A stretch of DNA of 64,000 bases from Methylococcales bacterium (GCA_018672285.1 JABHGC010000225.1:7153-71152); one strand, 5' to 3'. Positions 32,906-58,968 are shown, counted from the stretch's first letter. The notes: generated by a model from the letters alone, not told the origin. A program made the numbers and translations.

Positions 32906-33181
32906 AATTATCCAGTAACTTATTAATTTTTAAAACATAGTTCCAATATATAAAATAGTCGAATATCTACATTGGGTGGGGGGACATACTTAGAAATTCG
33001 CCAAATTTAAACATAAGCAACTGTTTATTGGTCTTATTTTTATATCATTATGATACTGCTGACGCAGATAAAATACCATCGCAAAAACACATCAAAGTTG
33101 CCTATTTTCTATGTGTTTAGGTAGCAATTTCTCACAACGATGGCCATACTCTATAGTATTTGCGCCATAAAGTGACTTTGC
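32906..33181. promoter_or_regulatory. AT-rich divergent intergenic region between the NRPS start and the kinase-like gene; promoters not mapped
   Basis: 277-bp non-coding AT-rich spacer between divergently oriented start codons. It contains a short palindrome, atcattatgat, at about 33047-33057. Confidence 0.3.
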
Positions 33182-34153
33182 ATGACCACCGATAAAGAAA
33201 GATGCCAGAAAATCACCAGTATGCTTTCCACGCTAACCGAAAATAAGCAACGCAGTGAGGTGATTTTACAGAGCATTATCCAAGATTTATCTCAGGTCCA
33301 AATAACTGCTAACATCCACACTATGCAATTGGAAAAGCAAGTCCAATACCTGACTCGCGAGCTCACCAAAAGTAACCTCACCTTACAAAATAAAGTCATT
33401 GAACTTGAAGACACCCGTGACAGGGCCATCAAATCAAACAAAGCAAAAAGTGCCTTTATAGCAACCGTTAGCAGACAACTACGCATGCCACTGGATGCCA
33501 TTATCGGCTACAGCACACTACTACTCGAAGGCCAAGGAAACCCTGAAGAGTTGCACGACGATTTACAGCAAGTGAATGTTGGTGCAGGACAAATATTAGA
33601 TTTAATCAATGACATTCTTGAACTCTCTGAGCTTGAATCTGGCCAAAGAGAACTGTCCATTGATGACTTTGTGGTCGAAGATTTTGTCAACGAAATCGAA
33701 ACCACAAGCCGCAAGGTGACTGACACCAATAACAATAAACTGATTATGGAGGTCAAGGCGGAACTCGGTGTCATGTCGACAGATATGAAAAAATTACGCC
33801 AAGCTCTGCTACATTTAATCAAAGCAGTCTCAACCAGAAACCATGATCACGTCATCCATTTTTCCGTTGAAACTGAAATCAGACACAACCTTTCGTGGTA
33901 TATTTTTAAAGTATCGGACTCATCTGAGATGAAAATGCCCGGAGAGAATTTTGAACATTTATTTGACCCATTTATTGATGTACCGATGACCAATGCACAT
34001 ATCTTAGAAGGCTGCGGTCTTGGCATGGCCATTACCAAACATATATGCAATATTTTACATGGGCGCTGCGGCATAGTGCATGACCCTGATTATGGCCCGA
34101 CTTTTTCTATTGCAATCCCGGAAACCCACCAACTTATGAACATGAATATTTAG
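33182..34153 (+). CDS. Cytoplasmic histidine-kinase-like protein (HisKA-like + HATPase_c) lacking the phospho-acceptor histidine
   Basis: No transmembrane segment and a coiled-coil N-terminus. The H-box position reads ATVSRQLRMPLDAIIGY (agc aga caa cta cgc atg cca ctg) where SHELRTPL is expected. An intact ATP-lid/G-box region is present (...GCGLGMAI...). Confidence 0.75.
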   Translation: MTTDKERCQKITSMLSTLTENKQRSEVILQSIIQDLSQVQITANIHTMQLEKQVQYLTRELTKSNLTLQNKVIELEDTRDRAIKSNKAKSAFIATVSRQLRMPLDAIIGYSTLLLEGQGNPEELHDDLQQVNVGAGQILDLINDILELSELESGQRELSIDDFVVEDFVNEIETTSRKVTDTNNNKLIMEVKAELGVMSTDMKKLRQALLHLIKAVSTRNHDHVIHFSVETEIRHNLSWYIFKVSDSSEMKMPGENFEHLFDPFIDVPMTNAHILEGCGLGMAITKHICNILHGRCGIVHDPDYGPTFSIAIPETHQLMNMNI

Positions 34154-34171
34154 GCTAAAAGGTAGCAACAG

Positions 34172-34474
34172 ATGGCAAAAATTTTAGTGGTTGATGATGC
34201 CGAAATGATTCGCAAACTCATGTCCGCATTCTTTTCCAAACACGGCATTACTGTCACCACAGCAGTCGATGGCATGGACGGCTTTAACAAACTGAAAGCT
34301 GACCCTGAAATCAAATTGGTTTTTGCTGACGTCAACATGCCAGAATTAAATGGGCTAGCTATGGTTGAAAAAATTCGCAACGAACTTGAAACCGAAGCGG
34401 TTATTTTGATGCTCACCTCAGAAAACAGCAACGAAATGAAAGAACGAGGAAGAGCGCTTGGCGTCAAAGGCTGA
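34172..34474 (+). CDS. CheY-like receiver domain protein, ended by an in-frame TGA before the conserved KPF lysine. The reading frame continues to 34534.
   Basis: MAKILVVDDAEMIRKLMS...FADVNMPELNG...LMLTSE...GVKG then TGA at 34472-34474. The same frame continues as VVKPFNDPNVINLVKKIVA and ends at a TAA at 34532-34534. Confidence 0.7.
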   Translation: MAKILVVDDAEMIRKLMSAFFSKHGITVTTAVDGMDGFNKLKADPEIKLVFADVNMPELNGLAMVEKIRNELETEAVILMLTSENSNEMKERGRALGVKG

Positions 34475-34704
34475 GTCGTAAAACCCTTTAATGACCCCAA
34501 TGTCATTAATTTAGTGAAAAAAATTGTTGCATAAGCTGCAAACACAGCCTAAAAAAAAGCGGCACTCTCATGTTACCTCCCCGGCGCCACACCAAGTTTT
34601 AGCACGCCATGCACGCGCTTCAGCCAACATCAACAGCATTGCTTGATATACCCAGCTGTAGTAGTTTAAACCCATAAAAAAACGACATTGAGCACAACGC
34701 CGCC

Positions 34705-36717
34705 ATGCTAAAACTCCTTAAAAATCACTTAGGCTTATTTTTCAGCTTACTCACCTTACTCACCTTACAATGGTTTATGGTGCGAGAAAGCGGCGCAGGC
34801 ATGGCTTACGACCACTTACTTGCATTCGCCAACTTATCATTGAGCTATTGGCTGGTATTGCTGTTTTGGTTTATTTATCGTTTTTTTGCAATAAAACCTA
34901 GAGCCTGGTTTTTCCCTTTATTGATTCAAGCGACATTTACCGCCCTATTATACTCAAGCCAAGCGCTGTTTTTAAACCTTGATTCAATGCAGTACCTGCT
35001 TTTTTATGCCCTAACTTCCTTACCGTGGCTGCTCTGTGCAGCACTCATTGGCACAACCATCTCTCGCTTGTTTGTTTACCAAAGCATTCCCTTTAAAACG
35101 GTTATTTTCAGCGGCCTCATCATTTATTTTGTTGCCCCTATCCCGCAACCTAACAGCAACACTGACCCCAGCGCCACTGTGCCGCTCGGTGAGCTATCCG
35201 TCGATAACTACCAGTATGGGAGTGGCACGATACAGCGCCAAAGCCTGTATGAGACACCATACTGGAAAAGCAAAACAATAGACCTTGCCCAGTACATTGC
35301 ACCTCACCTCTCTAAAAACACAAAGGCCAGGGATCAATTTTGGCAGTTTGATTTAGCCCGGTTCCCACTCAATGCAGAGGTTTGGCTACCGAAAACCAGC
35401 CAACCGCAACCATTAGTTATCATCAGCCATGGTGATTTTTTCATGGAAAAATACTCCGAACATGGCTATGCCTACTTAGGCCAACACCTTGCCAGCTTAG
35501 GTTATGCAGTAGTATCTATTGATGCGAATGCACTGAACTGGAGTGCTGATGGTAATTACTGGAGACAAGAGGATCTTGCTCGAGCACAGCTTATTTTAGC
35601 GCATATCAAACAGATAAAAGCCTTCTCCGAACAAAGTGAACACCCTCTAGCCAATGTCGATCTTAACCAAATCGCTTTAATTGGCCATTCCCGTGGGGGA
35701 GACGCCATTATGCTAGCTGCAAAGCTCAACTTAGAAGGCCCTCAGTTTAATCTTAAGACATTAATTGGTTTAGCACCCGTTGACAGTATTGGCCTACCAA
35801 ACCATGAATCCCCAATCGCCTTAAACAACATCAACTACCTAGTGCTTCAAGGCGGGGTAGATACAGAACTGCCTTATTTCCAGGGACAAAATCATTATGA
35901 CAACGTCCATATAAGTGCTCCGGGGCTTCACAAACTGAGCATTTTCGCCACCAGGGCGGATCATAGCCAGTTTAATCAAGATTGGAGCGATGCGGCCAAA
36001 AAATCTTACCTTAGACCGCTCTATAATACCGCCAACACCATGCCGGACTATGAGCAGAGAAAGTGGGCAAAACTTGCCGTTACCCACTTCCTAAACCTGA
36101 CATTACGAGACAAATCTATTTGGCCTAAAATTTCTACCACCGCATTTTGGCAGCAACAGTTCGCTGCAGAAACATTCATTACCCAAAGAGCAGATTCGAG
36201 CCATGTCAAGCTCAATCGGTGGCCTAAAATCAAACCTAAAATCACCGATGCCAAAGCAAGAATTAGGCCGATCAGCCAACAAGGTATGCCTGAAATACAG
36301 CAGCAGGAAGCACTCAGCATCCACTGGAATGGTCAAGCAAAAGTCGACTTTTCCCTACCTTACAAATTAGACCTTCGCTACATGCAACTCAACTTAACCA
36401 CGCTATGCATCGCTCAAGCTCAAAATACCTCACTCACTGTGGTACTCATTGATAGCAGCGGCAAACAATCCAGCCAAGCCATTGACAACGCACTCTGCCG
36501 AGCATTACCGGCACAGCACTTTAATAGTCAATTGTTAAACGCTGCAATTCAAACCTTAGCCGAACCAAAACAACAGCAACACATCATCCCACTAGGCGCA
36601 TTCTTTAAAAACAGTGAAATTGCCCCTCTCAAAGTGACAAAAATACGCATTGAAGCGGATGCCAGCTTGCCGAGTGACCTAACCATTGTCTCAGCATCAC
36701 TTTCAGTTGAAGATTAA
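34705..36717 (+). CDS. Membrane-anchored alpha/beta-hydrolase (lipase/esterase-like, GHSRGG nucleophile elbow) with a C-terminal domain of unknown function
   Basis: The N-terminal roughly 150 aa contain several hydrophobic helices. A GxSxG elbow appears in ALIGHSRGGDAIMLAA. Overall resemblance is to PAF-acetylhydrolase/chlorophyllase-type hydrolases. Confidence 0.7.
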   Translation: MLKLLKNHLGLFFSLLTLLTLQWFMVRESGAGMAYDHLLAFANLSLSYWLVLLFWFIYRFFAIKPRAWFFPLLIQATFTALLYSSQALFLNLDSMQYLLFYALTSLPWLLCAALIGTTISRLFVYQSIPFKTVIFSGLIIYFVAPIPQPNSNTDPSATVPLGELSVDNYQYGSGTIQRQSLYETPYWKSKTIDLAQYIAPHLSKNTKARDQFWQFDLARFPLNAEVWLPKTSQPQPLVIISHGDFFMEKYSEHGYAYLGQHLASLGYAVVSIDANALNWSADGNYWRQEDLARAQLILAHIKQIKAFSEQSEHPLANVDLNQIALIGHSRGGDAIMLAAKLNLEGPQFNLKTLIGLAPVDSIGLPNHESPIALNNINYLVLQGGVDTELPYFQGQNHYDNVHISAPGLHKLSIFATRADHSQFNQDWSDAAKKSYLRPLYNTANTMPDYEQRKWAKLAVTHFLNLTLRDKSIWPKISTTAFWQQQFAAETFITQRADSSHVKLNRWPKIKPKITDAKARIRPISQQGMPEIQQQEALSIHWNGQAKVDFSLPYKLDLRYMQLNLTTLCIAQAQNTSLTVVLIDSSGKQSSQAIDNALCRALPAQHFNSQLLNAAIQTLAEPKQQQHIIPLGAFFKNSEIAPLKVTKIRIEADASLPSDLTIVSASLSVED

Positions 36718-36725
36718 ATAGCGGC

Positions 36726-37466
36726 TTATAACACAGACACAACTGAGGTTTTCCAGCAGCACACATTCGCATCATTCATTTGGCGCTCATATGCTAATGC
36801 GGCTTTAAACCCCAACGACCCCATATCAATAGAAGCCATTCCCCAACGCTGCGTCTCCTCAGGGAACTCAGCATCATTCAGCAATGCAGCGTCTACACCC
36901 ACTGACACATCAAAACTTTCCAACCCTCTCATCAACCCATCACCATGTGCTTTTACATAAGCCTCTTTACGCGTCCAACAGCGAAAAAAGGCATTTTTCT
37001 GATCATCAGGATCGCACGATAGTATCGCTGCATGCTCTTGTTTTGAAAAAAATCGTTGAGACAAACTAGACCATTCCACCCGCCTATCTTGCTGCTCTAA
37101 ATCCACCCCTAACCGCCTATCTAACGAAAAAGCAAACAAAGCTTGCCCATGTGAGTGAGACACATTAAATTGCAGCGCATTATTCACAAGAGCAGGTTTA
37201 CCCTGGCTTAAATATGAAAACTCAACAGATTTCGCAGGCATCGCTAAATAGTGACCAAGCAAACTACGCAACACGCCTCTGGCTACGGCAAAATGCATTT
37301 GATCTTGACGCCGGTAAAAGCGTTTAGCCCTAGTCAGCTCAGTCTCGTTTAGCACCTGTAAAAATCGTGACTCAAGCGCCAAATCTACCTCTAACCCCAA
37401 TGACCAAACATGAACCTCATCATCAGCAAGTGTTACAGGAAGTGTCGGTTGTAACCAGTGGGTCAT
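36726..37466 (-). CDS. 4'-phosphopantetheinyl transferase, Sfp/EntD type
   Basis: Signature motifs FNVSHSHG, GVDLE and WTRKEAYVKAHG, about 246 aa. Convergent with the hydrolase gene and about 3.8 kb from the NRPS start. Confidence 0.8.
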   Translation of the reverse strand: MTHWLQPTLPVTLADDEVHVWSLGLEVDLALESRFLQVLNETELTRAKRFYRRQDQMHFAVARGVLRSLLGHYLAMPAKSVEFSYLSQGKPALVNNALQFNVSHSHGQALFAFSLDRRLGVDLEQQDRRVEWSSLSQRFFSKQEHAAILSCDPDDQKNAFFRCWTRKEAYVKAHGDGLMRGLESFDVSVGVDAALLNDAEFPEETQRWGMASIDMGSLGFKAALAYERQMNDANVCCWKTSVVSVL

Positions 37467-37539
37467 GAGTGAATTACCTTAAATTTGACCACAGCAGGTC
37501 AGTTCGTCATTATGGCCTTTTGTTCAAAGCCGCCATCTA

Positions 37540-38403
37540 ATGTTAGCAAATAATTTTATCGAAGAAAAAATACCACAAGGCAGCAGCTTGTATTACAGCT
37601 TCCGCACAACCTCTGGTGATAAAAAACAGGCTATTTTCACGCTCTTCACCTGGTTTAAAACCTTAGAGGACATCATTGATATCCCTGAATACCAAGTGGC
37701 AGAAAAAACCTTCGCCTGGTGGGCAGATGAAACATGCCACTTACAGAGCGATGCCTCACACCCTATCAGCCAAGCCCTAGCTCCAATTCTAAAACAAACC
37801 CAATTACCACAGTCACATCTTGAAAAAATCTGCACAGCTTTACAAAGTAATCTGACAACAGTGCAATACGCCAACCAAAATGAATTAAACCTGTACACAA
37901 CAAGCACCTTATCCAGTTTAAACCTATTCATTGCAACCCTTCTTTTAAGCCAAGCTCCTACACAACAGGAGCGTGGCGCCATAGAGCAACTCAGCATGGC
38001 TATGCAATGGATGAAAATCATCAGGTCACTGAGGGACGACTGCTTAAGAGGTCACATTTACCTGCCACAAGATTTACTAAAACAGCACCAACTCAGCTCA
38101 ACCCAATTACTCTCGTGCCAACAAACGCCAGACAGCCTAAAGCAACTGATCACAGAGCTAAAGGGGGTCATTTACACCCAATTGACAAGCCTTCGTTCCA
38201 CACCTAAAAAGTTCCGAAGAGCACTTGCACCACTCATAACCCAAGCCCTTCTAGACTGGAAAATACTCAACCTAACCATCACTTCAGGCTGTGATATTTT
38301 TGAACAAAGACAAAGCCTCTCACCAGTACACAAACTTTTAAACACCAGTGCTAGCCTTTGGCAAATTCAACTTGGTATTCTTCCGCTGCAACGTATTGTT
38401 TGA
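37540..38403 (+). CDS. Squalene/phytoene synthase family protein with degenerate Asp-rich motifs
   Basis: SSLYYSF...LFTWFKTLEDIIDIPE aligns with the YAFCRxxDDxxD region, giving EDxxD. IIRSLRDDCLRGHIYLPQDLL aligns with ARDIxEDxxxGRxYLP, where the first Asp is replaced by Ser. Confidence 0.6.
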   Translation: MLANNFIEEKIPQGSSLYYSFRTTSGDKKQAIFTLFTWFKTLEDIIDIPEYQVAEKTFAWWADETCHLQSDASHPISQALAPILKQTQLPQSHLEKICTALQSNLTTVQYANQNELNLYTTSTLSSLNLFIATLLLSQAPTQQERGAIEQLSMAMQWMKIIRSLRDDCLRGHIYLPQDLLKQHQLSSTQLLSCQQTPDSLKQLITELKGVIYTQLTSLRSTPKKFRRALAPLITQALLDWKILNLTITSGCDIFEQRQSLSPVHKLLNTSASLWQIQLGILPLQRIV

Positions 38404-38456
38404 GATGAACATTCGTCTTATGATAGAGGTAAGTATACCGACACAAGGCTTAGCGC

Positions 38457-39200
38457 ATGAACTTCTCTGTACCTCCTAACAGCTTAAAAGACAAAGTTAT
38501 CTTAATCACAGGCGCTGGCGCAGGAATTGGCCGAGCAGTCGCCAAGGCACTTGCACTCCAAGGTGCGACCATCATTTTACTCGGCAAAACCATCTCGAAG
38601 CTTGAAAGTATTTACGATGAAATTGAGGCTGCTAATTGCCCAACCCCTGCAATCTATCCAATGGATTTAAGTGGTGCATCAGAACATGATTTAGGTGCGC
38701 TAATTGAGACCATCAATACAACGTTTCATCGCCTGGATGGCATCATACATAACGCGGCCTTTTTTGAAGCACTCACCCCATTTGACCAAGAGTCTGCTGA
38801 GTCATTATTAAAAGCCATGCAAGTTAACGTTAACACACCCTTTATCATCACCCAGCTAGCACTGCCACTTTTGAAACAATCCACCACAGCATCCATTATT
38901 TTTACTACTGATTCTGTTGGCAAAATTGGCAAAGCCTATACCGGTGTGTATGGCATTTCAAAGTTCGCCGTGGAAGGGATGGCACAAATTTTAGCGGAAG
39001 AACTCGAAGGCACAAGCGTTAGAGTGAATAGAGTTGAACCGATGGAGGTTCGCAGTGGACATAGCAGCCGAATTTATCCAGGTAAAGAAATTCAGAAATT
39101 AGCAGGCCCTGAAGACATCACTGCAGCTTACGTATATTTAATGAGCGACGAAAGTCAGGCTGTTCACGGTGAGTCAATCACTGCTGACACCACTCAGTAA
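38457..39200 (+). CDS. yciK: SDR-family oxidoreductase, YciK-like
   Basis: KVILITGAGAGIGRAVAKALALQGATIILLGK Rossmann motif. Length and sequence resemble E. coli YciK. Confidence 0.7.
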   Translation: MNFSVPPNSLKDKVILITGAGAGIGRAVAKALALQGATIILLGKTISKLESIYDEIEAANCPTPAIYPMDLSGASEHDLGALIETINTTFHRLDGIIHNAAFFEALTPFDQESAESLLKAMQVNVNTPFIITQLALPLLKQSTTASIIFTTDSVGKIGKAYTGVYGISKFAVEGMAQILAEELEGTSVRVNRVEPMEVRSGHSSRIYPGKEIQKLAGPEDITAAYVYLMSDESQAVHGESITADTTQ

Positions 39201-39250
39201 AATTCATGACTGCAGGTTAAGGTTAAAAGAAGTCATCACCCTTTGATAAC

Positions 39251-39295
39251 AAAAACGAGCAAAAGCACCTTCGGAGTGTGCTTTTGCTCGTTTTT
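39251..39295. terminator. Bidirectional rho-independent terminator between convergent genes
   Basis: Perfect 13-bp stem cgagcaaaagcac (39256-39268) pairing with gtgcttttgctcg (39278-39290), a 9-nt loop, an A-run upstream (39251-39255) and a T-run downstream (39291-39295). Confidence 0.75.
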
Positions 39296-39307
39296 ACAAA
39301 CTAACCG

Positions 39308-39904
39308 TTAAGCTGCGCCATCTAATAATTCAATTTGAAAACGCAAACTTTCTGGCATTTTTTTGGCTCTTCGACCCAGTAATGGTAATAATTTTTGCTC
39401 AACATAGTCATATTGACCGTCTGATAGAATTCGCTCAATTAACCAGTTGGCTTCCTCATCATCAATCTCATTGGGTGAATCAGAATCTTCAAGCAAATGA
39501 CGAGAGACTGTCCTTGCAAAAAATGCGCCCCAACTTGGATGATTTTCTTCGCTATTCGCCACTTGTTCATTTAAGTCGAATAAAAAATCTGCTAAAGGCC
39601 GTGTAATTTTTTCGGTCGTCGCTTTCACTGCTGGGAAAAGTTTTTTGATTTGCTGAACAAGCTCAGCTGACATACACCCACGATGGGCAACATGCTCGTT
39701 TATTGCAGAAAGTAATAAAGGGTTTGGTATGGTGGCTTTAATGCCATCATTACTGAAAATTTTGGTCAAATAACCAATACTGCTGATGCTCAAAGGTGAG
39801 CTATCGCTAATGTCTACCAGTAGTCGCTTCCGTTCAGCTGGTTTTAGAGTTGCGCTAAACGCACCCTTTTCACACTGAGATTTAATCTTCTTCTTATAAT
39901 CCAT
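39308..39904 (-). CDS. Hypothetical protein, acidic and helical
   Basis: ORF of 198 aa with no recognised family. Confidence 0.5.
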   Translation of the reverse strand: MDYKKKIKSQCEKGAFSATLKPAERKRLLVDISDSSPLSISSIGYLTKIFSNDGIKATIPNPLLLSAINEHVAHRGCMSAELVQQIKKLFPAVKATTEKITRPLADFLFDLNEQVANSEENHPSWGAFFARTVSRHLLEDSDSPNEIDDEEANWLIERILSDGQYDYVEQKLLPLLGRRAKKMPESLRFQIELLDGAA

Positions 39905-40392
39905 GGAAATCCTCCGCCAATGATTTTTTGCCCTCTTGTCAATTCCATAATCCTGAGGGTGTTTTTAGTTTTTTCAACCTCTGCTTATAATTACCTCCAT
40001 TACTCTATGTCTATAAAATTACACATCGTATTCTCAGGCAATGATACTCGCGCCACAGAAACTATCTACTCGGACATTCCCTAGCTTTTACCATTAAATA
40101 ATATTCTACTTTTATTGTGCGCGAGCGAAAAATTCAAATAAAACGTTAATTATCAATTATTTACAGATTAAAAGAAAAAATCATAAATCATTCAAATATT
40201 AACCATTTAAGAACAGACCTTTAATATAAAGTTCAATTTTTTTGCTTTTATTGTTAAAAGTATGCCACTGAATGCAGCTTACATTTCCCTTATGACAGCC
40301 GTATTACAAGACAATGTAAGCTTCTACCTACAAAGGGTCGTTGTGAACACACTCAGAATTCGCTAGCATCACACTTTTAACTTAGGCGAGCA

Positions 40393-41136
40393 ATGATGGT
40401 TCAGCGTGTAGAATTACTTCAGTACTTAAATGACCTCCTCAAACCTGAACAATTTAAGGACTATTGTCCAAACGGGCTACAAATTGAAGGCACTGACACC
40501 ATTGAGCACCTAGTCACTGGTGTCACCGCTTGCCAAGCATTAATCGACCAAACCGCTCAAGCTAAAGCCAGCGCATTATTGGTGCATCACGGTTTTTTTT
40601 GGAAAAATGAAGCACCTCAATTGGTTGGCATGAAACATCACCGAGTCAAAACCTTGATTCAGAATGACATTAACTTAATCGGTTATCACTTACCGCTGGA
40701 TGCACACCCTACCCTCGGCAATAACGCGCAGCTAGCAAGCCAACTTAAGCTTTCTATTGACCAAACTTTTGGCGATCAAAATTTAGCTGTCGCGGGTAAC
40801 ATAGACATTTCAACTAAAGCGCTAAGCGATCGGCTTTGCCAGGTCTTATCACGGCCACCAGAGGTATTTGGGGCGTCTCGACAAATTAAGAGGCTGGGCA
40901 TTTGTACAGGTGCTGCCCAAGGGTTTTTAACACAAGCTGCTGAACTTGGGTTAGATGCATTCATCAGTGGTGAGGTTTCAGAGTCAACTTTTCATATTGC
41001 TGAAGAGTTGAACATTCAATATTTTGCCGCAGGGCATCACGCCACAGAGCGGTTTGGTGTACAAGCCGTAGGCGCACACTTGGCGGAACATTTTGGGATC
41101 AGTCACCAGTTTATTGACATCAACAACCCTATTTAA
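40393..41136 (+). CDS. ybgI: Nif3-family dinuclear metal-centre protein (GTP cyclohydrolase 1 type 2 / YbgI-like)
   Basis: N-terminal ...LLQYLNDLLKPEQFKDYCPNGLQIEG... and overall length match Nif3/YbgI. Confidence 0.75.
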   Translation: MMVQRVELLQYLNDLLKPEQFKDYCPNGLQIEGTDTIEHLVTGVTACQALIDQTAQAKASALLVHHGFFWKNEAPQLVGMKHHRVKTLIQNDINLIGYHLPLDAHPTLGNNAQLASQLKLSIDQTFGDQNLAVAGNIDISTKALSDRLCQVLSRPPEVFGASRQIKRLGICTGAAQGFLTQAAELGLDAFISGEVSESTFHIAEELNIQYFAAGHHATERFGVQAVGAHLAEHFGISHQFIDINNPI

Positions 41137-43511: not shown

Positions 43512-44357
43512 ATGAAAATATCCATCATCGGAACAGGTCACATGGGGCTCGCTATGTTATCTAGGCTCAATACGGCACCCTTTGAATGTATGGCTTATAA
43601 TCGCAGCCCTGAAAGACTAAACGACCTACCTGATGGTGTAGTATCGACGGGTGACATTACTGAAGCCATTTCATTTGCCGAGGTTGCTATCTTCATAGTC
43701 TCTGACGCAGATGCCATACTCTCACTCCTTGATGGCCAAAATTTAACCAACAAAATTATTCTACAAATGGGCACCATTGCGCCAGATCAAAGCCTGCAAT
43801 GCGCGGATACGGTCACCAATATGGGCGGCCAATACCTAGAAGCCCCTGTACTTGGAAGTATTCCAGAATCTGCTGCCGGCACATTGCTGATTATGACCGG
43901 CGGTGACAATGCGACCTTTGAGCGCTGCCAACCCATTTTACAAAGACTCGGCAAATCCGTGCGGCATATTGGCAGCGTAGGGCAAGCGGCAGCCATCAAG
44001 TTGGCTTTAAACCAGCTAATCGCCTCGCTAACCAGCGCATTTTCGCTAACAGTCGGCTTTCTACAAAACAACCAGTTAGAGATAGACCCTTTCATGGAAA
44101 TTTTACGAGAAAGTGCGCTCTACGCCCCTACTTTCGATAAAAAATTACAAAAAATGCTAGATCGTGACTTTGAAAGCGCTAATTTTCCAATGCAACATTT
44201 ACTCAAAGATGTCGGTTTGTTTTTACAATCACCTGCAACAAAACCATTAGATAGCCGCTTTCTAGAGTCCATTCAGCAAACATTAATCGACGCAACACCA
44301 GAATACTCACAGCATGATTACTCAGCACTCTACAATCAAGTCAACCCAAAAGTTTGA
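43512..44357 (+). CDS. NAD(P)-binding oxidoreductase, 6-phosphogluconate/3-hydroxyisobutyrate dehydrogenase-like
   Basis: N-terminal MKISIIGTGHMGLAM Rossmann motif; 281 aa. Confidence 0.6.
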   Translation: MKISIIGTGHMGLAMLSRLNTAPFECMAYNRSPERLNDLPDGVVSTGDITEAISFAEVAIFIVSDADAILSLLDGQNLTNKIILQMGTIAPDQSLQCADTVTNMGGQYLEAPVLGSIPESAAGTLLIMTGGDNATFERCQPILQRLGKSVRHIGSVGQAAAIKLALNQLIASLTSAFSLTVGFLQNNQLEIDPFMEILRESALYAPTFDKKLQKMLDRDFESANFPMQHLLKDVGLFLQSPATKPLDSRFLESIQQTLIDATPEYSQHDYSALYNQVNPKV

Positions 44358-47779: not shown

Positions 47780-50700
47780 ATGCCCATCAAACAAAATGTT
47801 GGCTCCATTGACTCTATCATCCGTAAAGTGCTCGGTATTGGTGCCATATACTATGGTTTTATCTCTCCACAACTCGTTGGAGACCCTTTGTTTGCCAATT
47901 TATTGGGATTTCTTGGTGTCATCGTCATCATCAGCAGTTTATTTCGCTACTGCCCCTTATACGTGTTAGGAGAGTTTAAAAAAATATTCAACGCTAAAAG
48001 CAAAAAAACCGCCAAAGATCCTTCCCTCAGAACCACAAAAAAATATTTTTTTATTACCTTCTCTTTATTAACCGTCACCACCATCATCATTTTTGGCCTA
48101 GTGGCCTATCATAGCGCCGTTGAGATAAGCCAGGAAAGAGAAAATAGTTATACCAATACCCTCTTCAAAACCCATTCTGATTTTTTAGTCAGTAACGCCA
48201 ATGTTGACGATGTCCAATCATTACAAGATGTTGCTGCGAGTTTAAAAGGCTTTTTAGGACAGATTTTTGCCATCGAAAATGGCTATTTAATTCACCCTCT
48301 ATCCATTGGCAGCGGCATGATTATGTCCACTGCAGACATTCAGAGGCTCTCCATTCTCACCAGCAACGCAGGCACCCTCGATTTACCAGAACACCGCAGA
48401 CACTGGCAAAAAATTCCGCTACCCAATAGCCGTTATACCTTATTTGTCACTTACGACATGCCGCTGTATGAAACACAGTTGCTCGATGCATTTAACAGTA
48501 GATTGTTTGTTGCCAGTACCATTTTATTTTATTTTTACGTCTGGGGCACACTCATTGGAACCAGGTATATTTCCAAGAAATTTGACCTGATCAACTCAGC
48601 TCGCATGGAAAGTGAGGCACTGAACACGTTACTGCTTAACTCAACGGCAGAAGCGATTTATGGTGTCGATACCGATGGAAATTGCACTTTCTGTAACCCC
48701 GCGACGTTACAGCTGTTGGGTTATTCGGATGTAGACGACTTGTTAGGTAAAAATGTGCATAATTTAATGCACCATAGTCACCCAGATGGTTCAGAATATC
48801 CCATTGAAGACTGCCCAATGAACCGGGTTTTAAAACAAGGCCTCCCTGTACACGAAGATAATGAGGTTTTTTGGCGCGCCGACAACACCTGCTTCCCAGT
48901 TGAATACTGGGGCCACCCCATTGTACAAAATGACCAAGCACAAGGCATGGTCATGACCTTCTTAGACATTACCAAGCGTAAAGTCGCAGAAGCTGAAAGG
49001 CTAAAACTGTCCAGTGTTGTTGAGCAGTCTAAGGACCTCATTGTATTAACAGACAATCATGCCGTTATCAGCTATACCAATCCTGCATTTAGCGATATTA
49101 CCGGGTTTAGTTATGAAGATGCACTCGGTAAAGAAATTTCAATTCTCAACCAAGCACTGACTGAAAATGATGAACACGAACAAATTTTCGACACCCTAAA
49201 ACAAGGTGATATTTATCAAGACTCGTTTGTTAATTACCGAAAAAATGGTGATGCATATTATTTAGATTTATCTGTATATGGCCTTAAAAATCAACAAGGT
49301 GAGCTTGAATCTATTGTATATACTGGCCGTGATGTCACCGAGAAAATTGACACCGAAGAGACGATTCGCCAATCTGAGAGCGATAAAATAGAAGCTGAAG
49401 CTGCCAATCAATCGAAAAGCATCTTCTTAGCCAATATGAGCCATGAAATTCGCACACCAATGACTGCGATCATTGGCTTTGCCGAATCCTTGTTAGATGA
49501 TGATATTACCGAAATAGAACGAAGAGATGCCGTTAAAACGATTATTCGTGGTGGTCAACACTTAACCAGGATTATCAATGATATTTTAGATCTTTCTAAG
49601 ATAGAAGCTAACCGAGTTGATATTGAATCAATCCCGATAGACCTCTTAGAACTATTGGCTGAAATCAACAAGATTGCCAATATTCAAGTCAACAACAAGC
49701 ACATTGACTTTATTGATGAATACCAATTTCCACTACCAAGAATCATTCACTCAGACCCAACTCGGTTAAAACAAATTTTATTAAATTTAGTCACAAACGC
49801 GGTTAAATTTACCGATAGCGGTCATGTTGAGCTAACCCTGTCACATGACCCGCAAGAGCAATTAATTTTCTTTAAAATAAAAGATACCGGCATTGGGCTT
49901 AGCGACGAACAGCAACGTAAGTTATTCAACCCTTTCTCACAAGCAGAAAGCTCAACAACGAGACGTTACGGTGGCACCGGTTTAGGGCTGCATATTTCCA
50001 AACAACTCTCCGAACGAATGGGCGGCTCAATCACCGTTGAAAGCCAATTAAATGTTGGCAGTACATTTACCTTAAGCATTGCCAGTGGTTTGAAGAGCAC
50101 TCTTGCAGAAGACGAATTAATTACGACCCGCGAACAAGTCATTAAGACGGCGCATGAACATGACCACGTTTATGAGGATGCAACCCACGGTGCCAAGATA
50201 TTAATTTCAGAAGACAGTAAAGTCTCTCAAGCATTATTAAAACGGCTTTTCAAAGACAGCAATATTGAAATTGAAATCGTCGACAATGGAGAGCGAGCGT
50301 TAGAGCGCGCATTCGAGACAGAGTTTGACTTAGTCTTAACAGACATTCATATGCCGATCATGGATGGCTTAGAAGCCACTCAAAAAATGCGCGACAGAGG
50401 GTTTAAAAAACCCATTATTGCCATCACTGCCAACGTCATGAAAAATGACATCACCAATTATTACAGTGCAGGCTGTGATGCCGTTATTTCCAAACCCATC
50501 GAGAAAGACAATTTCTTTACGGTTATCAATAAATATTTAACTGACAAACAATATAAACCGAAGGCTACCACCACGGAGATTCCACAGCTGAGCGGCGAAA
50601 TATTAGTGGCAGAGGACAACCCAGATAATCAACGCCTCATTACGATGGTCATCAATAAAACAGGGGCAAACTTAAGTATCGCTGAGGATGGCTTATCAGC

Positions 50701-51295
50701 CATCGAACATACCTTAAGCAAGGATTACCACATCATTTTAATGGACATCAACATGCCATTAATGAATGGGCTTGAGGCGACTAAGAAGCTACGCAAAGCC
50801 GGTTATACCCTACCCATCTACGCTCTCACAGCTGATACAGATAAAGACAAGGTCACCGCGTTTGAAGAGGCAGGTTATGATGGTTATTTATCCAAGCCTT
50901 TAGACAACAGACAACTCTACAGCGTTCTAGAAAAATATTTACCCTGCAACAGTAAACCTGAAAAATTACCGACATATACCGAAGGGAAATCGGCAGAAAT
51001 GGCTTACGAGGAAGTCGATGAGGAAATTTTGTCGTTGATGATCTTGTTTGCGGAAAGATTACCCCCAATGATTGAACAAATTGACACTGCCATTAAAGAG
51101 CAAGACTGGGAAACAGCAGGCGCCGTCATTCACAATATTAAAGGGACTGCAGGTAGCTTTGGACACCCTAAATTAACACTGTTAGCTGGCGTGCTATCCA
51201 ACATCATCAAGAATGCCGATTATGATGATGCCCCTATTGCTTTTGCCGATGTCGTTGAATACGCCAAAAACCACGTTACGACGACCCCAAGTTAA
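47780..51295 (+). CDS. Hybrid sensor histidine kinase: DUF2892-like membrane N-terminus, PAS domains, HisKA, HATPase_c, two receiver domains and an Hpt domain
   Basis: N-terminus ...LFRYCPLYVLGEF (YgaP/DUF2892-like). H-box ANMSHEIRTPMTAIIGF. Receiver 1 ...DLVLTDIHMPIMDGLEA and receiver 2 ...HIILMDINMPLMNGLEA. Hpt HNIKGTAGSFG. Confidence 0.8.
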   Translation: MPIKQNVGSIDSIIRKVLGIGAIYYGFISPQLVGDPLFANLLGFLGVIVIISSLFRYCPLYVLGEFKKIFNAKSKKTAKDPSLRTTKKYFFITFSLLTVTTIIIFGLVAYHSAVEISQERENSYTNTLFKTHSDFLVSNANVDDVQSLQDVAASLKGFLGQIFAIENGYLIHPLSIGSGMIMSTADIQRLSILTSNAGTLDLPEHRRHWQKIPLPNSRYTLFVTYDMPLYETQLLDAFNSRLFVASTILFYFYVWGTLIGTRYISKKFDLINSARMESEALNTLLLNSTAEAIYGVDTDGNCTFCNPATLQLLGYSDVDDLLGKNVHNLMHHSHPDGSEYPIEDCPMNRVLKQGLPVHEDNEVFWRADNTCFPVEYWGHPIVQNDQAQGMVMTFLDITKRKVAEAERLKLSSVVEQSKDLIVLTDNHAVISYTNPAFSDITGFSYEDALGKEISILNQALTENDEHEQIFDTLKQGDIYQDSFVNYRKNGDAYYLDLSVYGLKNQQGELESIVYTGRDVTEKIDTEETIRQSESDKIEAEAANQSKSIFLANMSHEIRTPMTAIIGFAESLLDDDITEIERRDAVKTIIRGGQHLTRIINDILDLSKIEANRVDIESIPIDLLELLAEINKIANIQVNNKHIDFIDEYQFPLPRIIHSDPTRLKQILLNLVTNAVKFTDSGHVELTLSHDPQEQLIFFKIKDTGIGLSDEQQRKLFNPFSQAESSTTRRYGGTGLGLHISKQLSERMGGSITVESQLNVGSTFTLSIASGLKSTLAEDELITTREQVIKTAHEHDHVYEDATHGAKILISEDSKVSQALLKRLFKDSNIEIEIVDNGERALERAFETEFDLVLTDIHMPIMDGLEATQKMRDRGFKKPIIAITANVMKNDITNYYSAGCDAVISKPIEKDNFFTVINKYLTDKQYKPKATTTEIPQLSGEILVAEDNPDNQRLITMVINKTGANLSIAEDGLSAIEHTLSKDYHIILMDINMPLMNGLEATKKLRKAGYTLPIYALTADTDKDKVTAFEEAGYDGYLSKPLDNRQLYSVLEKYLPCNSKPEKLPTYTEGKSAEMAYEEVDEEILSLMILFAERLPPMIEQIDTAIKEQDWETAGAVIHNIKGTAGSFGHPKLTLLAGVLSNIIKNADYDDAPIAFADVVEYAKNHVTTTPS

Positions 51296-52780: not shown

Positions 52781-53006
52781 AAATGTCTAAGAAATGATCC
52801 ATCAATTCAATTTCTTTGTCTTCTGACGCTTGATAACTGGTTGTTTGATCTTCAGGCATAAAGCAGGTAATCAACCAGCTTTGCACGATCTCTTCATCCT
52901 CAAAGCCAACTTCCATGTTGATGTGTGTTTTCAACCAACCTTCTGGCGCTGTATCCGCAACCCAGTAAACTAGCTCTTGGTAAATCACTTCCATTGTTTC
53001 ACTCAT
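52689..53006 (-). CDS. Small acidic hypothetical protein, translationally coupled to the upstream kinase gene
   Basis: 105-aa ORF whose ATG overlaps the stop codon of the Ser/Thr kinase gene by 1 nt (TAATG). Confidence 0.45.
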   Translation of the reverse strand: MSETMEVIYQELVYWVADTAPEGWLKTHINMEVGFEDEEIVQSWLITCFMPEDQTTSYQASEDKEIELMDHFLDIYEYHAKREEGWSICDFTVTKNGEYEVGYNT

Positions 53007-55174
53007 TAGATATTCAATCCTTGTAAATCTGCTTGAAGTTCTTGTATTCCTTGGTATCGATCTTGAGGCTTTTTAGCCATTGCCCGCTGCACAATCAAAT
53101 CAATTTCCATGGGCATTTCAGGATATTTTTCACATATTTTAGGCACTGGGTCTTTAAGGTGAGACTGCAGTAATTCCCTTAAATCAATCGACTTAAAGGG
53201 GGTCGTTCCTGCAAAAATCCGATAAAACACAGCCCCCAACTGATAAATATCTGTTCGCTCATCAATTCCTTGGCGCATAATTTGTTCTGGCGCCATATAG
53301 TAAGGTGTACCAATAATTTTCTTGGTTTCTTGCTCATTATCAACTTGTAACGCCAAACCAAAATCCATCACTTTTAAGATGCCTTGGGATGAAATCATCA
53401 TATTCCTAGGGTTAATATCTCGATGAACGATCCCTTGCTCATGTGCAGAAGCAATGGCTGCAGACATCTGTCTGGCTAAAATCACTCCCAAACGAATGTT
53501 ATCAATTCGCCCACCGGAGCGCTGCAACAAGGTGTGCAAGTCATACCCATGTATATATTCCATAGAAATATAAATTTGGTTATTCACGACGCCATAGTCG
53601 TATGTTCTTAACACATTCCTTGCCGTAATCATTCTGGCCAGCTTAATTTCATGCTTAAGCAACGCTTGCTGATTATCATCAACTTGAAACAATACTTTCA
53701 AAGCGACGGTTTCATCTAGACCGGTGTCATGTGCCAAATACACCATTCCCATTCCGCCCGCACCAAGCTCTTTTATAATATTGAAGCGACCCTCAGCAAA
53801 GGGTTGCCCAATCGTGACTTGGTCTGGCTCTACAGCACTTGCTTTTGCAGACAATGGCTGTGATAAATCCTGGGTGACAAAATGACTAGAATCTTCAGAC
53901 TCCACATCGATAACCAAACTACGGTTTAAGCTATCATCACCACTGTAGTTTGTAATTTCAGTGGCAAATTCTTTCGATAAATTTCTTGAGTACTCATCCT
54001 CAAGCAGGCCCTCCGAGATTTTAGCCAGATAATCTTGCAGATCCTCATTATCACGTAATTTTTCACCCAGTAAATAGATTGAATCTGTTAAAACACAGAT
54101 TTCATCTTTACAGGATGTAGATAACTCCGATTCTGCGATTGAATCAATTTGCTTAAAATCCCCCTCTTTGATTCTTGAGGTGAGCTCAATAAGGTGGTTC
54201 ACAGGTTTGGTAATTTGACCTGAGAAAATCCATGCAAAAATACTCGCTAAAATAAGACTAATGAGGCCAATAATAAGAATTTTGTCTTTAATTGTATCAA
54301 ACGGTTTCATAAAGTCGGATTTAGACTTCATCGCCAACACATACCCAAGCGTACTACCACCACTGCGCTCGAGTGGGTAAACAGCAATATGGTATTGTAA
54401 GCCATTTAACTGTAACCGGCTCATACTGCCTTCTTTCAAATTCTGTTTGATACGTGTAAAAATATCACCTTCTTTAGAAATTAATGCTTCAGCAAGGCCA
54501 ATATCGGTCATAAATTGTAGTTTAGGTTTTACCGTACCATCCACTTTTGCCATTGCATAAATTGCGATATCACTGGTGGTCAGTTTTTTAATTCTTGCGG
54601 CCATATCTGAGGAAACCTGAAATGCTACTGCAATAGCACCTCTGATAATATCCCCTGCATTAACGTCTAAATCATAAACAGGTAAAGAGACAATTTGAAA
54701 TATCTTACCTCGAGAAACCATGAAGCCTCTCGCTTCCTTTCCCGTTAATGCCGTGTCTATTAAATGATGACTTCCTTTAATTCTTGAACCGATCAATGAT
54801 TTTTTATCTGTTCTAGACAAAACATAGCCATCTGCATTGACAAACAATAAAATATCAAGCTCTGATGACTCTTTGAGCTCATTAGATAAATCCAACAAAG
54901 AGTCTTTATCTTGCTCAATGACTAAAGGCGTCACTCTTTGGTCCTCAGCAATGGTTTTAGCAATGTTGGATATGCGCTCAAACCGGTTCAACCAGCTTTC
55001 TTCTAGTACCGCCTCAGTTTGTGTTAATGCAAGGTTAATCTCTGAATTCGCGACATCTTCAGCTTGCTCTCCAACTAGCAAAATCAATGCAGCCAATAAA
55101 AACCCAAAACTCAGAGATAGAATTAAAAAAAGCTTTCTCTTGATCGAGACTTGATTAAAAATCTTCAAAGTCAT
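53006..55174 (-). CDS. Transmembrane receptor Ser/Thr protein kinase: periplasmic sensor domain, HAMP, Hanks-type kinase
   Basis: TM1 LFLILSLSFGFLLAALILLV. A periplasmic region of about 250 aa. TM2 ILIIGLISLILASIFAWIFSG. A HAMP-like linker. Kinase motifs GAGGMGMVY, VALKVL, HRDINPRN, MDFGLA and MAPEQ. Confidence 0.8.
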   Translation of the reverse strand: MTLKIFNQVSIKRKLFLILSLSFGFLLAALILLVGEQAEDVANSEINLALTQTEAVLEESWLNRFERISNIAKTIAEDQRVTPLVIEQDKDSLLDLSNELKESSELDILLFVNADGYVLSRTDKKSLIGSRIKGSHHLIDTALTGKEARGFMVSRGKIFQIVSLPVYDLDVNAGDIIRGAIAVAFQVSSDMAARIKKLTTSDIAIYAMAKVDGTVKPKLQFMTDIGLAEALISKEGDIFTRIKQNLKEGSMSRLQLNGLQYHIAVYPLERSGGSTLGYVLAMKSKSDFMKPFDTIKDKILIIGLISLILASIFAWIFSGQITKPVNHLIELTSRIKEGDFKQIDSIAESELSTSCKDEICVLTDSIYLLGEKLRDNEDLQDYLAKISEGLLEDEYSRNLSKEFATEITNYSGDDSLNRSLVIDVESEDSSHFVTQDLSQPLSAKASAVEPDQVTIGQPFAEGRFNIIKELGAGGMGMVYLAHDTGLDETVALKVLFQVDDNQQALLKHEIKLARMITARNVLRTYDYGVVNNQIYISMEYIHGYDLHTLLQRSGGRIDNIRLGVILARQMSAAIASAHEQGIVHRDINPRNMMISSQGILKVMDFGLALQVDNEQETKKIIGTPYYMAPEQIMRQGIDERTDIYQLGAVFYRIFAGTTPFKSIDLRELLQSHLKDPVPKICEKYPEMPMEIDLIVQRAMAKKPQDRYQGIQELQADLQGLNI

Positions 55175-57810: not shown

Positions 57811-58968
57811 CTAGATCTTGTTCACATCAGGATCTAGCGGTAAGGTAAAATAAAACTGACTACCAACCCCAACCGTACTTTCCACACCCACTTCCCCACC
57901 ATGTGCATCAATAATTTTTTTGACGATGGCCAAACCTAAACCCGTACTTGACTCACCACCGGTGGACTGTGTTCCCGCTGTTTGAAATGAATCAAATAAT
58001 GTTTTTTGAGCAGGTTCATCAATCCCAGGTCCCTCATCAACAACGGCCACTTTAGCAAAGCCATTAGCATGACTAATTGCCACTTTAATTTTCGCATTTT
58101 TGGGGCTGAACTTAATGCTATTACTAATTAGGTTATCAATCACCTGACCGACTCGCAAACGGTCAAAAACAAAGGGGGCATTCGATTGCCCCTCCATTAA
58201 TAGAGAGATATGCTTTTGATCGGCTCTGAAGCGATGGTGTTTGATTTTTTCTAACACCAGCATTTCTAAATCTGCTTCATTTTTAGATAGTTTTAAAGTC
58301 CCGTTTTCAATGGCTGACATGTCAACAAGGTCATTGATTAACAGTAATGCTTCATTGGCCACATTAAAAATTTTATTGTGAATCCCCTCCAACTCATCAG
58401 CTTCATACTGAGCATCCAGCAATAGCTCCATATAACCTTTAATCACACCTACGGGGTTGCGTAAGTCATGAGCGACCATGCCTAACAGCTTGTTTTTATC
58501 CTCATTGAGCCTAGCTTGTTCCTGTAACGCATACCTTAGCTGTAAATGGGTTTGAATCCTAATTCTAACTTCACGCTCATTAAAGGGCTTAGTCATATAA
58601 TCTTTGGCGCCAGCATCAAACCCTTTTATGACATCATCGATATCAGACATTGCGGTTAAAAATATAATGGCAACGTCTTTAAATTCAGGTTTTTGCTTCA
58701 GTATTCGACAAACCTCAAAGCCATCAATACCGGGCATCATGATGTCTAATAAGATTAAATCAGGCTTGAAATGCTCTGCAACTTTTATCGCTCGCTCACC
58801 ACTTTGTGCCAGCGCTAGCTGATACCCATCAGGCCTCAGCGCCTCTGTTAACACTCTGATGTTTTCAGCAACATCATCGACCAGTAAAATTTTAAGACCC
58901 GCTGGATTATAAGGTAGATTAGACATCAGATATTTTACCAATGATGTCAATAATCCCATCCATATCAT
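57811..58968 (-). CDS. Response-regulator receiver fused to a histidine kinase (REC-HisKA-HATPase_c). The start is probably the internal Met at about 58926.
   Basis: REC ...ILLVDDVAENIRVL...LILLDIMMPGIDGFEV. H-box MVAHDLRNPVGVIKGY. G-box ...GLGLAIVKKII. Confidence 0.75.
   Translation of the reverse strand: MIWMGLLTSLVKYLMSNLPYNPAGLKILLVDDVAENIRVLTEALRPDGYQLALAQSGERAIKVAEHFKPDLILLDIMMPGIDGFEVCRILKQKPEFKDVAIIFLTAMSDIDDVIKGFDAGAKDYMTKPFNEREVRIRIQTHLQLRYALQEQARLNEDKNKLLGMVAHDLRNPVGVIKGYMELLLDAQYEADELEGIHNKIFNVANEALLLINDLVDMSAIENGTLKLSKNEADLEMLVLEKIKHHRFRADQKHISLLMEGQSNAPFVFDRLRVGQVIDNLISNSIKFSPKNAKIKVAISHANGFAKVAVVDEGPGIDEPAQKTLFDSFQTAGTQSTGGESSTGLGLAIVKKIIDAHGGEVGVESTVGVGSQFYFTLPLDPDVNKI

Follow-up and report, generated by a model that had tools for sequence, protein, structure and literature searches.

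The segment at positions 33,182 to 37,466 of a 64,000-nucleotide stretch of Methylococcales bacterium DNA (GCA_018672285.1, JABHGC010000225.1:7153-71152; hereafter the window) carries four genes beside the start of a giant non-ribosomal peptide synthetase (NRPS) gene, and is probably a mosaic of resident chromosomal genes that abut the NRPS by chance, not a co-inherited accessory block. A first-pass annotation of the window had delineated four open reading frames (ORFs) here, all of which are present, and had read them as NRPS-linked accessory genes; that interpretation survives in part, in that the role it assigned to the phosphopantetheinyl transferase (PPTase) is retained while the dedicated accessory block is not. 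All components of the segment belong to known kinds, and comprise a histidine kinase (HK)-like gene, a receiver gene, a hydrolase gene and the PPTase gene:

33182-34153, plus strand: HK-like gene, 323 aa, with Pfam HisKA and HATPase_c domains.
34172-34534, plus strand: receiver gene including the part past a TGA codon; the annotated ORF is 34172-34474, 100 aa, Response_reg.
34705-36717, plus strand: membrane-anchored serine hydrolase gene, 670 aa, with a Chlorophyllase-type match and the motif GHSRGG.
36726-37466, minus strand: Sfp/HetI-type PPTase gene, 246 aa, with AASDHPPT_N and ACPS domains.

The evidence for a mosaic comes mainly from synteny. A search with the HK-like protein in a 5.8-billion-protein collection returned only two close relatives, P0122 and P0123 (52-53% identity), and the gene for P0123 was located on a 52.8-kb contig (locus L026) and on a second contig of a Joint Genome Institute (JGI) assembly (L027). 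The gene order at both loci is an AmiC-like amidase (minus), HK (plus), PPTase (minus), SQS_PSY (plus), a YciK-type short-chain dehydrogenase/reductase (SDR; plus), a hypothetical protein of 197 aa (minus) and NIF3 (plus), which matches window positions 33182-41136 in order and orientation, minus the receiver and hydrolase genes. In tblastn comparisons with the window, the identities are 53% for HK, 54% for the PPTase, 38% for SQS_PSY, 65% for YciK, 53% for the hypothetical protein and 60% for NIF3, and no part of either locus matched the NRPS, receiver or hydrolase. The amidase occupies the place of the NRPS, divergent from HK, and the 10 kb upstream of the L026 HK encode the amidase, a U32 peptidase, thioredoxin, DsrC, an M20 peptidase and MotAB, with no NRPS. 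HK and PPTase lie tail to tail in L026 with 3' ends that overlap by 26 bp, and therefore leave no room for genes between them. A second relative (L029) likewise carries an AmiC amidase divergent from HK, which is followed by a PHO4 transporter. The L026 and L029 organisms come from samples ERZ27262698 and JGI 3300028031.

The HK-like gene and the PPTase gene would accordingly be read as members of a neighbourhood that is older and was inherited vertically (HK, PPTase, SQS_PSY, YciK, hypothetical protein, NIF3), and the receiver and hydrolase genes, together about 2.6 kb, would sit between HK and PPTase in the window's lineage only. The first-pass annotation had named the presence of the four genes in relatives without the NRPS as the sign of ancestral flanking genes; at the level of the locus this is what is found for HK and PPTase, whereas the receiver and hydrolase genes are absent there. 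A scan for mobile-element scars and repeats around the receiver–hydrolase segment gave only short matches at chance level. As judged by gene order, positions 37540-41136 are part of the conserved chromosomal backbone to which HK and PPTase belong, and include the following genes:

37540-38403, plus strand: SQS_PSY, conserved backbone, 38% identity in L026/L027.
38457-39200, plus strand: YciK-type SDR, conserved backbone, 65% identity in L026/L027.
39308-39904, minus strand: hypothetical protein of 198 aa, conserved backbone, 53% identity in L026/L027.
40393-41136, plus strand: NIF3/YbgI, conserved backbone, 60% identity in L026/L027.

The first of these, an HpnD-like gene of the squalene/phytoene-synthase family, is divergent from the PPTase gene, an arrangement kept in L026, and its 38% is the lowest identity among the syntenic genes.

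Several points weigh against a chance juxtaposition. The comparison covers one relative lineage (L026/L027 and the sister locus L029) that is fairly distant, at 53-65% identity, and it would fit either a gain of NRPS, receiver and hydrolase in the window's lineage or their loss in the relatives. The absence of an NRPS in the relative is known for the 10 kb upstream of its HK. There is no compositional sign that the NRPS was recently inserted or transferred, as its tetranucleotide correlation with the flank is high (r = 0.90) and GC content and third-position GC (GC3) are alike across all genes. The hydrolase is intact and lineage-specific, and may have recently gained a lipopeptide-related role. 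Finally, the closeness of the PPTase gene to the NRPS is itself weak evidence for a link, with three or four of 21 distant PPTase homologues lying within 10 kb of an NRPS.

One alternative, although an unlikely one, is that the order NRPS, HK, receiver, hydrolase and PPTase is ancestral, and that the L026/L029 lineage deleted the NRPS and the receiver–hydrolase pair and left HK and PPTase behind. Polarity is not set by the more distant gammaproteobacteria, which offer no outgroup, as AmiC lies in the canonical yjeF-tsaE-amiB-mutL array or on a short contig in the contexts examined. The composition of the NRPS, similar to that of the rest of the window, fits a long residence, and the 26-bp overlap between the 3' ends of HK and PPTase in L026 could be a deletion scar. 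However, this course of events needs two separate deletions, one on each side of HK, and the amidase is directly divergent from HK in both L026 and L029. Even under such a history, HK and PPTase are still retained without the NRPS, which argues that they do not depend on it.

The preferred reading, that of resident genes next to an NRPS, leaves the PPTase with a plausible function in peptide synthesis. The PPTase (MBT7444872.1) contains both lobes of an Sfp-type enzyme, AASDHPPT_N (PF22624, 37 bits against a cut-off of 27) and ACPS (PF01648, 67 bits against a cut-off of 25), and its GxDxE and WTxKEAxxK motifs are intact, with G120, D122, E124, W164, T165, K167, E168 and K172 invariant in the alignment. 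Its gene is convergent with the hydrolase gene, and the two stop codons are 8 bp apart. Like Sfp of Bacillus subtilis, HetI of Nostoc and PcpS of Pseudomonas aeruginosa, which are proteins of about 240 aa, it combines AASDHPPT_N and ACPS with the GxDxE and WxxKEAxxK motifs. It resembles Sfp in that it is encoded a few kb from an NRPS, and PcpS in that it is encoded amid housekeeping genes, and its orthologue persists without an adjacent NRPS. In contrast, the score against the NCBIfam HetI model (NF042922) is 172.5 bits, below the cut-off of 370 bits, so that the protein resembles HetI without being its orthologue. The best match among 185,579 species genomes, which are representatives that do not include the source genome or its close relatives, is only 41-43% identical, and these are the nearest homologues outside its own lineage; the activity is a prediction from sequence. 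As no PPTase in these species genomes exceeds that level, the syntenic L026 copy at 54% identity is taken as the orthologue.

The prospective substrate of this enzyme and the region between it and the segment are as follows:

2-32905, minus strand: 5' part of the giant NRPS gene, at least 10,968 aa; the open frame spans 2-32929 with an ATG at 32905, and the window's left edge cuts it.
32906-33181, no strand: divergent intergenic region between the NRPS and the HK-like gene, 276 bp.

The visible part of the NRPS contains 11 Condensation-family, 10 AMP-binding and 8 PP-binding domains (Pfam), which bears out the count of eight or more carrier domains in the first-pass annotation. The loading unit at its start consists of a fatty acyl-AMP ligase (FAAL)-type first domain and an acyl carrier protein (ACP), from which a lipopeptide is the expected product. 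No thioesterase domain is visible up to the window edge. The NRPS also contains tandem Condensation-family domains, which are probably epimerisation domains.

That the PPTase activates these carrier domains, as proposed earlier, is a reasonable assignment for a complete Sfp-type enzyme whose gene is the sole biosynthesis-type gene to the right of the NRPS. Acting in trans, it would most probably move phosphopantetheine from coenzyme A (CoA) onto the serine of at least eight NRPS carrier domains, and it would act as a general-purpose enzyme that serves other carrier proteins too. The PPTase probably activates the NRPS as a resident enzyme of broad-specificity-like character, and not as a cluster-specific one.

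The hydrolase (MBT7444871.1) begins with five hydrophobic transmembrane helices (residues 1-147), and the charge distribution in the loops predicts that its catalytic part faces the periplasm. Ser329 of the GHSRGG motif, Asp386 and His420 are invariant in 37 family members, and an AlphaFold model (mean pLDDT 77, pTM 0.80) places an alpha/beta core at about residues 160-490 and a beta-sandwich at 491-668. The Chlorophyllase profile (PF07224) matches with 37 bits against a cut-off of 26, and the PETase profile (PF12740) stays below its cut-off of 28 at 26.7 bits. Cutinases, PETases, the Streptomyces exfoliatus lipase, platelet-activating factor (PAF) acetylhydrolase and chlorophyllase are soluble or secreted and about 260-370 aa long, whereas the window protein carries the five N-terminal helices in addition and ends in a beta-sandwich of about 180 aa. 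By sequence, the best PDB match is 9xg1 (793 aa, E = 3e-14), which was deposited under the name 'Protein-asparaginase' and outranks the cutinases and PETases; a search of the literature for 'protein asparaginase' found no paper. On the strength of that match, the substrate may be an amide rather than an ester. The protein is an intact serine hydrolase, probably an esterase or lipase that works on the periplasmic side of the inner membrane, and would correspond to a Ser-Asp-His enzyme of the cutinase/PAF-acetylhydrolase type that is tethered to that membrane with its catalytic domain in the periplasm.

The genomic surroundings of the hydrolase family point away from non-ribosomal peptide synthesis. 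The gene for the nearest homologue (P0002, 34% identity) is flanked by genes for a solute-binding protein and an HNH protein and has no NRPS, PPTase or signalling gene in its vicinity; its contig comes from the same sample as L026 and is of similar composition (tetranucleotide r = 0.90). A metagenome profile scan yielded more than 500 relatives, and neighbourhoods were taken from the best 80 loci (857 kb). These contained no condensation domain and no Sfp-type PPTase, and an adenylating enzyme was encoded at one locus, a receiver at two and an HK at one. No neighbouring family recurred in the 80 loci, the most frequent being an ABC ATPase (7/80). As far as these neighbourhoods indicate, the hydrolase family is widespread and stand-alone. 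Its members, proteins of 650-810 aa, carry generic names only, and no described function was found in these searches.

A dedicated NRPS accessory hydrolase, such as a type II thioesterase or a lipopeptide-degrading or resistance enzyme, would likewise be encoded by a serine alpha/beta-hydrolase gene near an NRPS. However, the window protein has no type II thioesterase architecture and no thioesterase family match, is predicted to be periplasmic, and belongs to a family that is not found beside NRPS genes at its best 80 loci. A type II thioesterase needs access to the cytoplasmic carrier domains, and a periplasmic location therefore excludes thioesterase-like proofreading on a cytoplasmic NRPS. 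Processing or degradation of an exported product is possible but finds no comparative support, and to assign the enzyme an effect on the NRPS product would be speculative.

These results bear directly on the possibility that the four genes are true NRPS accessories, namely a PPTase devoted to the cluster, a hydrolase that confers self-resistance, matures the product or hydrolyses the lipopeptide, and a dedicated, atypical regulatory pair, which together form the inner right border of the cluster. The block lies only 276 bp from the NRPS start, the PPTase is intact, the hydrolase is intact, periplasm-facing, lipase-like and confined to this lineage, and some distant PPTase homologues adjoin NRPSs. 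Such an arrangement is nevertheless rather improbable. HK and PPTase orthologues occupy the same backbone without an NRPS, the hydrolase family shows no association with an NRPS or PPTase in 80 loci, the HK is predicted to be unable to autophosphorylate and the receiver is cut short (see below), and the HK separates the NRPS from the receiver–hydrolase pair, so that the block is not evolutionarily contiguous with the NRPS. Co-conservation of the four genes with the NRPS, which the first-pass annotation had proposed to check, is not what the relatives display: L026 and L027 keep HK and PPTase with no NRPS within 10 kb, and none of the 80 hydrolase-family loci has NRPS or PPTase neighbours.

Nor do the four genes appear to delimit the right-hand border of the cluster, as had been proposed; the border is better placed at the NRPS promoter region (32906-33181), which is its most likely position. 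The window, L026 and L029 share a -10-like TATAGT/TATAAT element ahead of the HK start. An intergenic alignment intended to find the insertion boundary was too diverged, and nothing aligns beyond this element; promoter and terminator scans gave no more than the level of shuffled sequence. To the right of the NRPS, the window encodes housekeeping and signalling proteins, and, the PPTase excepted, no further carrier-related, transport, tailoring or other biosynthesis-type gene. A search for the left border by way of the relative's amidase gave thousands of matches at about 55% identity, none of which could be attributed to this metagenome-assembled genome.

Of the two signalling genes, the HK-like gene encodes a protein that scores above the Pfam cut-offs for HisKA (51.1 bits) and HATPase_c (33.1 bits), and the earlier designation as a pseudo-HK is appropriate. 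Its H box reads SRQLRMPL, as opposed to SHELRTPL in homologues, which places Arg98 (codon 33473-33475) at the position of the phospho-acceptor histidine. The orthologues P0122 and P0123 read SRQLR(M/S)PL and carry the same arginine at about 52% overall identity. The N box is KAVSTRN in the window and KNAAKFT in P0122/P0123, and the G1 box is DSSEMKM in the window and DTGxGI in P0122/P0123, so that both are degenerate in the window copy, in which the G2 box (GxGxG) is present. Compensated frameshifts were rejected as the cause of the lost boxes, as the other frames do not contain these motifs and the changes are substitutions. The window HK is predicted to be incapable of autophosphorylation, with its ATP-binding determinants lost as well, and the intact ATP-binding boxes of P0122 and P0123 suggest a functional pseudo-kinase there.

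As in DivL of Caulobacter, a pseudo-histidine kinase with tyrosine in place of histidine, the window protein combines HisKA and HATPase_c domains with a non-histidine residue at the phospho-acceptor site, and, as in pseudo-histidine kinases, the substitution is conserved among orthologues. It differs from the DivL type in that the substitute is arginine, in that it is a short soluble protein whose N-terminus is only a coiled coil and which lacks a sensor domain, and in the loss of the N and G1 boxes. Pseudo-histidine kinases are infrequent, as about 0.9% of HisKA domains lack the histidine (bioRxiv 10.1101/2025.06.23.661182).

Position 33988 is G in the window and T in five other assemblies of the locus (L002, L112-L115), which changes HK residue 269 from isoleucine (ATT) to methionine (ATG). 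This is the sole difference from those assemblies over 2.4-13.8 kb.

The receiver gene had been called unusual without a stated reason, and a reason can now be given: its ORF ends at a TGA where 13 of the 14 closest stand-alone homologues carry tryptophan, within the motif GW(I/V)VKPF. The ORF 34172-34474 matches Response_reg (PF00072) with 65 bits over profile positions 1-94 of 111. Past the in-frame TGA at 34472-34474, the frame reads VVKPFNDPNVINLVKKIVA up to a TAA at 34532-34534, and these 19 codons are intact and encode VVKPF with the catalytic lysine and helix alpha5. With the TGA read as tryptophan, the Pfam match rises to 78 bits and extends over positions 1-110 of 111. Of the active-site residues, D8, D9, D53 and T82 lie within the ORF, and the lysine of KPF is encoded only past the TGA. 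Stand-alone CheY-like receivers are proteins of 120-126 aa, and the window receiver is 47-59% identical to single-domain members; it differs from them in the TGA in place of the conserved tryptophan, two codons before the catalytic lysine, and in a product without that lysine and helix alpha5. A single TGG-to-TGA change, by this comparison, appears to have inactivated the receiver by removing the catalytic lysine and helix alpha5.

Two other causes of the TGA were considered and rejected. The same base occurs in contigs of at least two further ENA assemblies and in the source sample's own Logan and ENA assemblies, which speaks against an assembly error. An alternative code with TGA as tryptophan (code 4) is contradicted by the 10,976-codon NRPS frame, which contains no TGA, and by the TGA codons that end SQS_PSY and the gene at 43512-44357.

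Read-through of UGA by a near-cognate tRNA inserts tryptophan, and the receiver might on this account still be functional, with low-level read-through by tRNA-Trp restoring the tryptophan and the full-length receiver working with the pseudo-HK as a non-canonical module. The intact 19 codons past the TGA, which encode KPF and helix alpha5, and the fixation of the TGA in several assemblies are consistent with this. It is very doubtful all the same, as no recoding signal was identified, the neighbouring HK, lacking the histidine, the N box and the G1 box, provides no phosphate donor, and a recent nonsense mutation would leave the codons behind it just as intact. Inactivation of the receiver is the preferred interpretation. 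An HK without the histidine, N box and G1 box and a receiver cut short make a phosphorelay impossible and a role as NRPS regulators unlikely; the two proteins would form no working phosphorelay, and would be decaying or, at most, non-enzymatic in function. A regulatory role of the two genes for the NRPS is, on the motifs they retain, unlikely.

A far more elaborate scenario, in which the arginine-bearing HK is a functional conserved pseudo-kinase, tail to tail with the PPTase, that gained a receiver and a periplasmic esterase for sensing or processing the cell's own lipopeptide, with the hydrolase as a self-resistance or maturation enzyme and the receiver UGA as a read-through switch, is scarcely credible.

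Further features of the window were noted beside these genes. Two contigs from other assemblies (L114 and L115; ENA ERZ4201021 and ERZ23491686) both end at window position 34487, 13 nucleotides past the receiver TGA, which could reflect a structural breakpoint between strains or a repeated assembly of the same reads. A perfect 18-nucleotide inverted repeat with a 9-nucleotide loop lies at 39251-39295, between the convergent genes for YciK and the 198-aa hypothetical protein, and is probably a bidirectional terminator. Signalling genes are dense in the right part of the window (47780-51295, 53006-55174 and 57811-61150): one encodes a hybrid HK of 1171 aa that combines PAS with two receiver domains and an Hpt domain, another a Ser/Thr protein kinase linked to dCache, and a third a receiver-HK, the last overlapping the gene of a HAMP hybrid HK.

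For annotation, the HK-like, receiver and hydrolase genes should not be counted as cluster genes on proximity alone, and the PPTase is best regarded as a resident enzyme that is probably used by the NRPS. The HK-like protein belongs to a small HisKA clade, with three known members, that has a conserved arginine at the phospho-acceptor site, and the hydrolase represents a widespread family of membrane-anchored, cutinase-like enzymes that may merit separate study.

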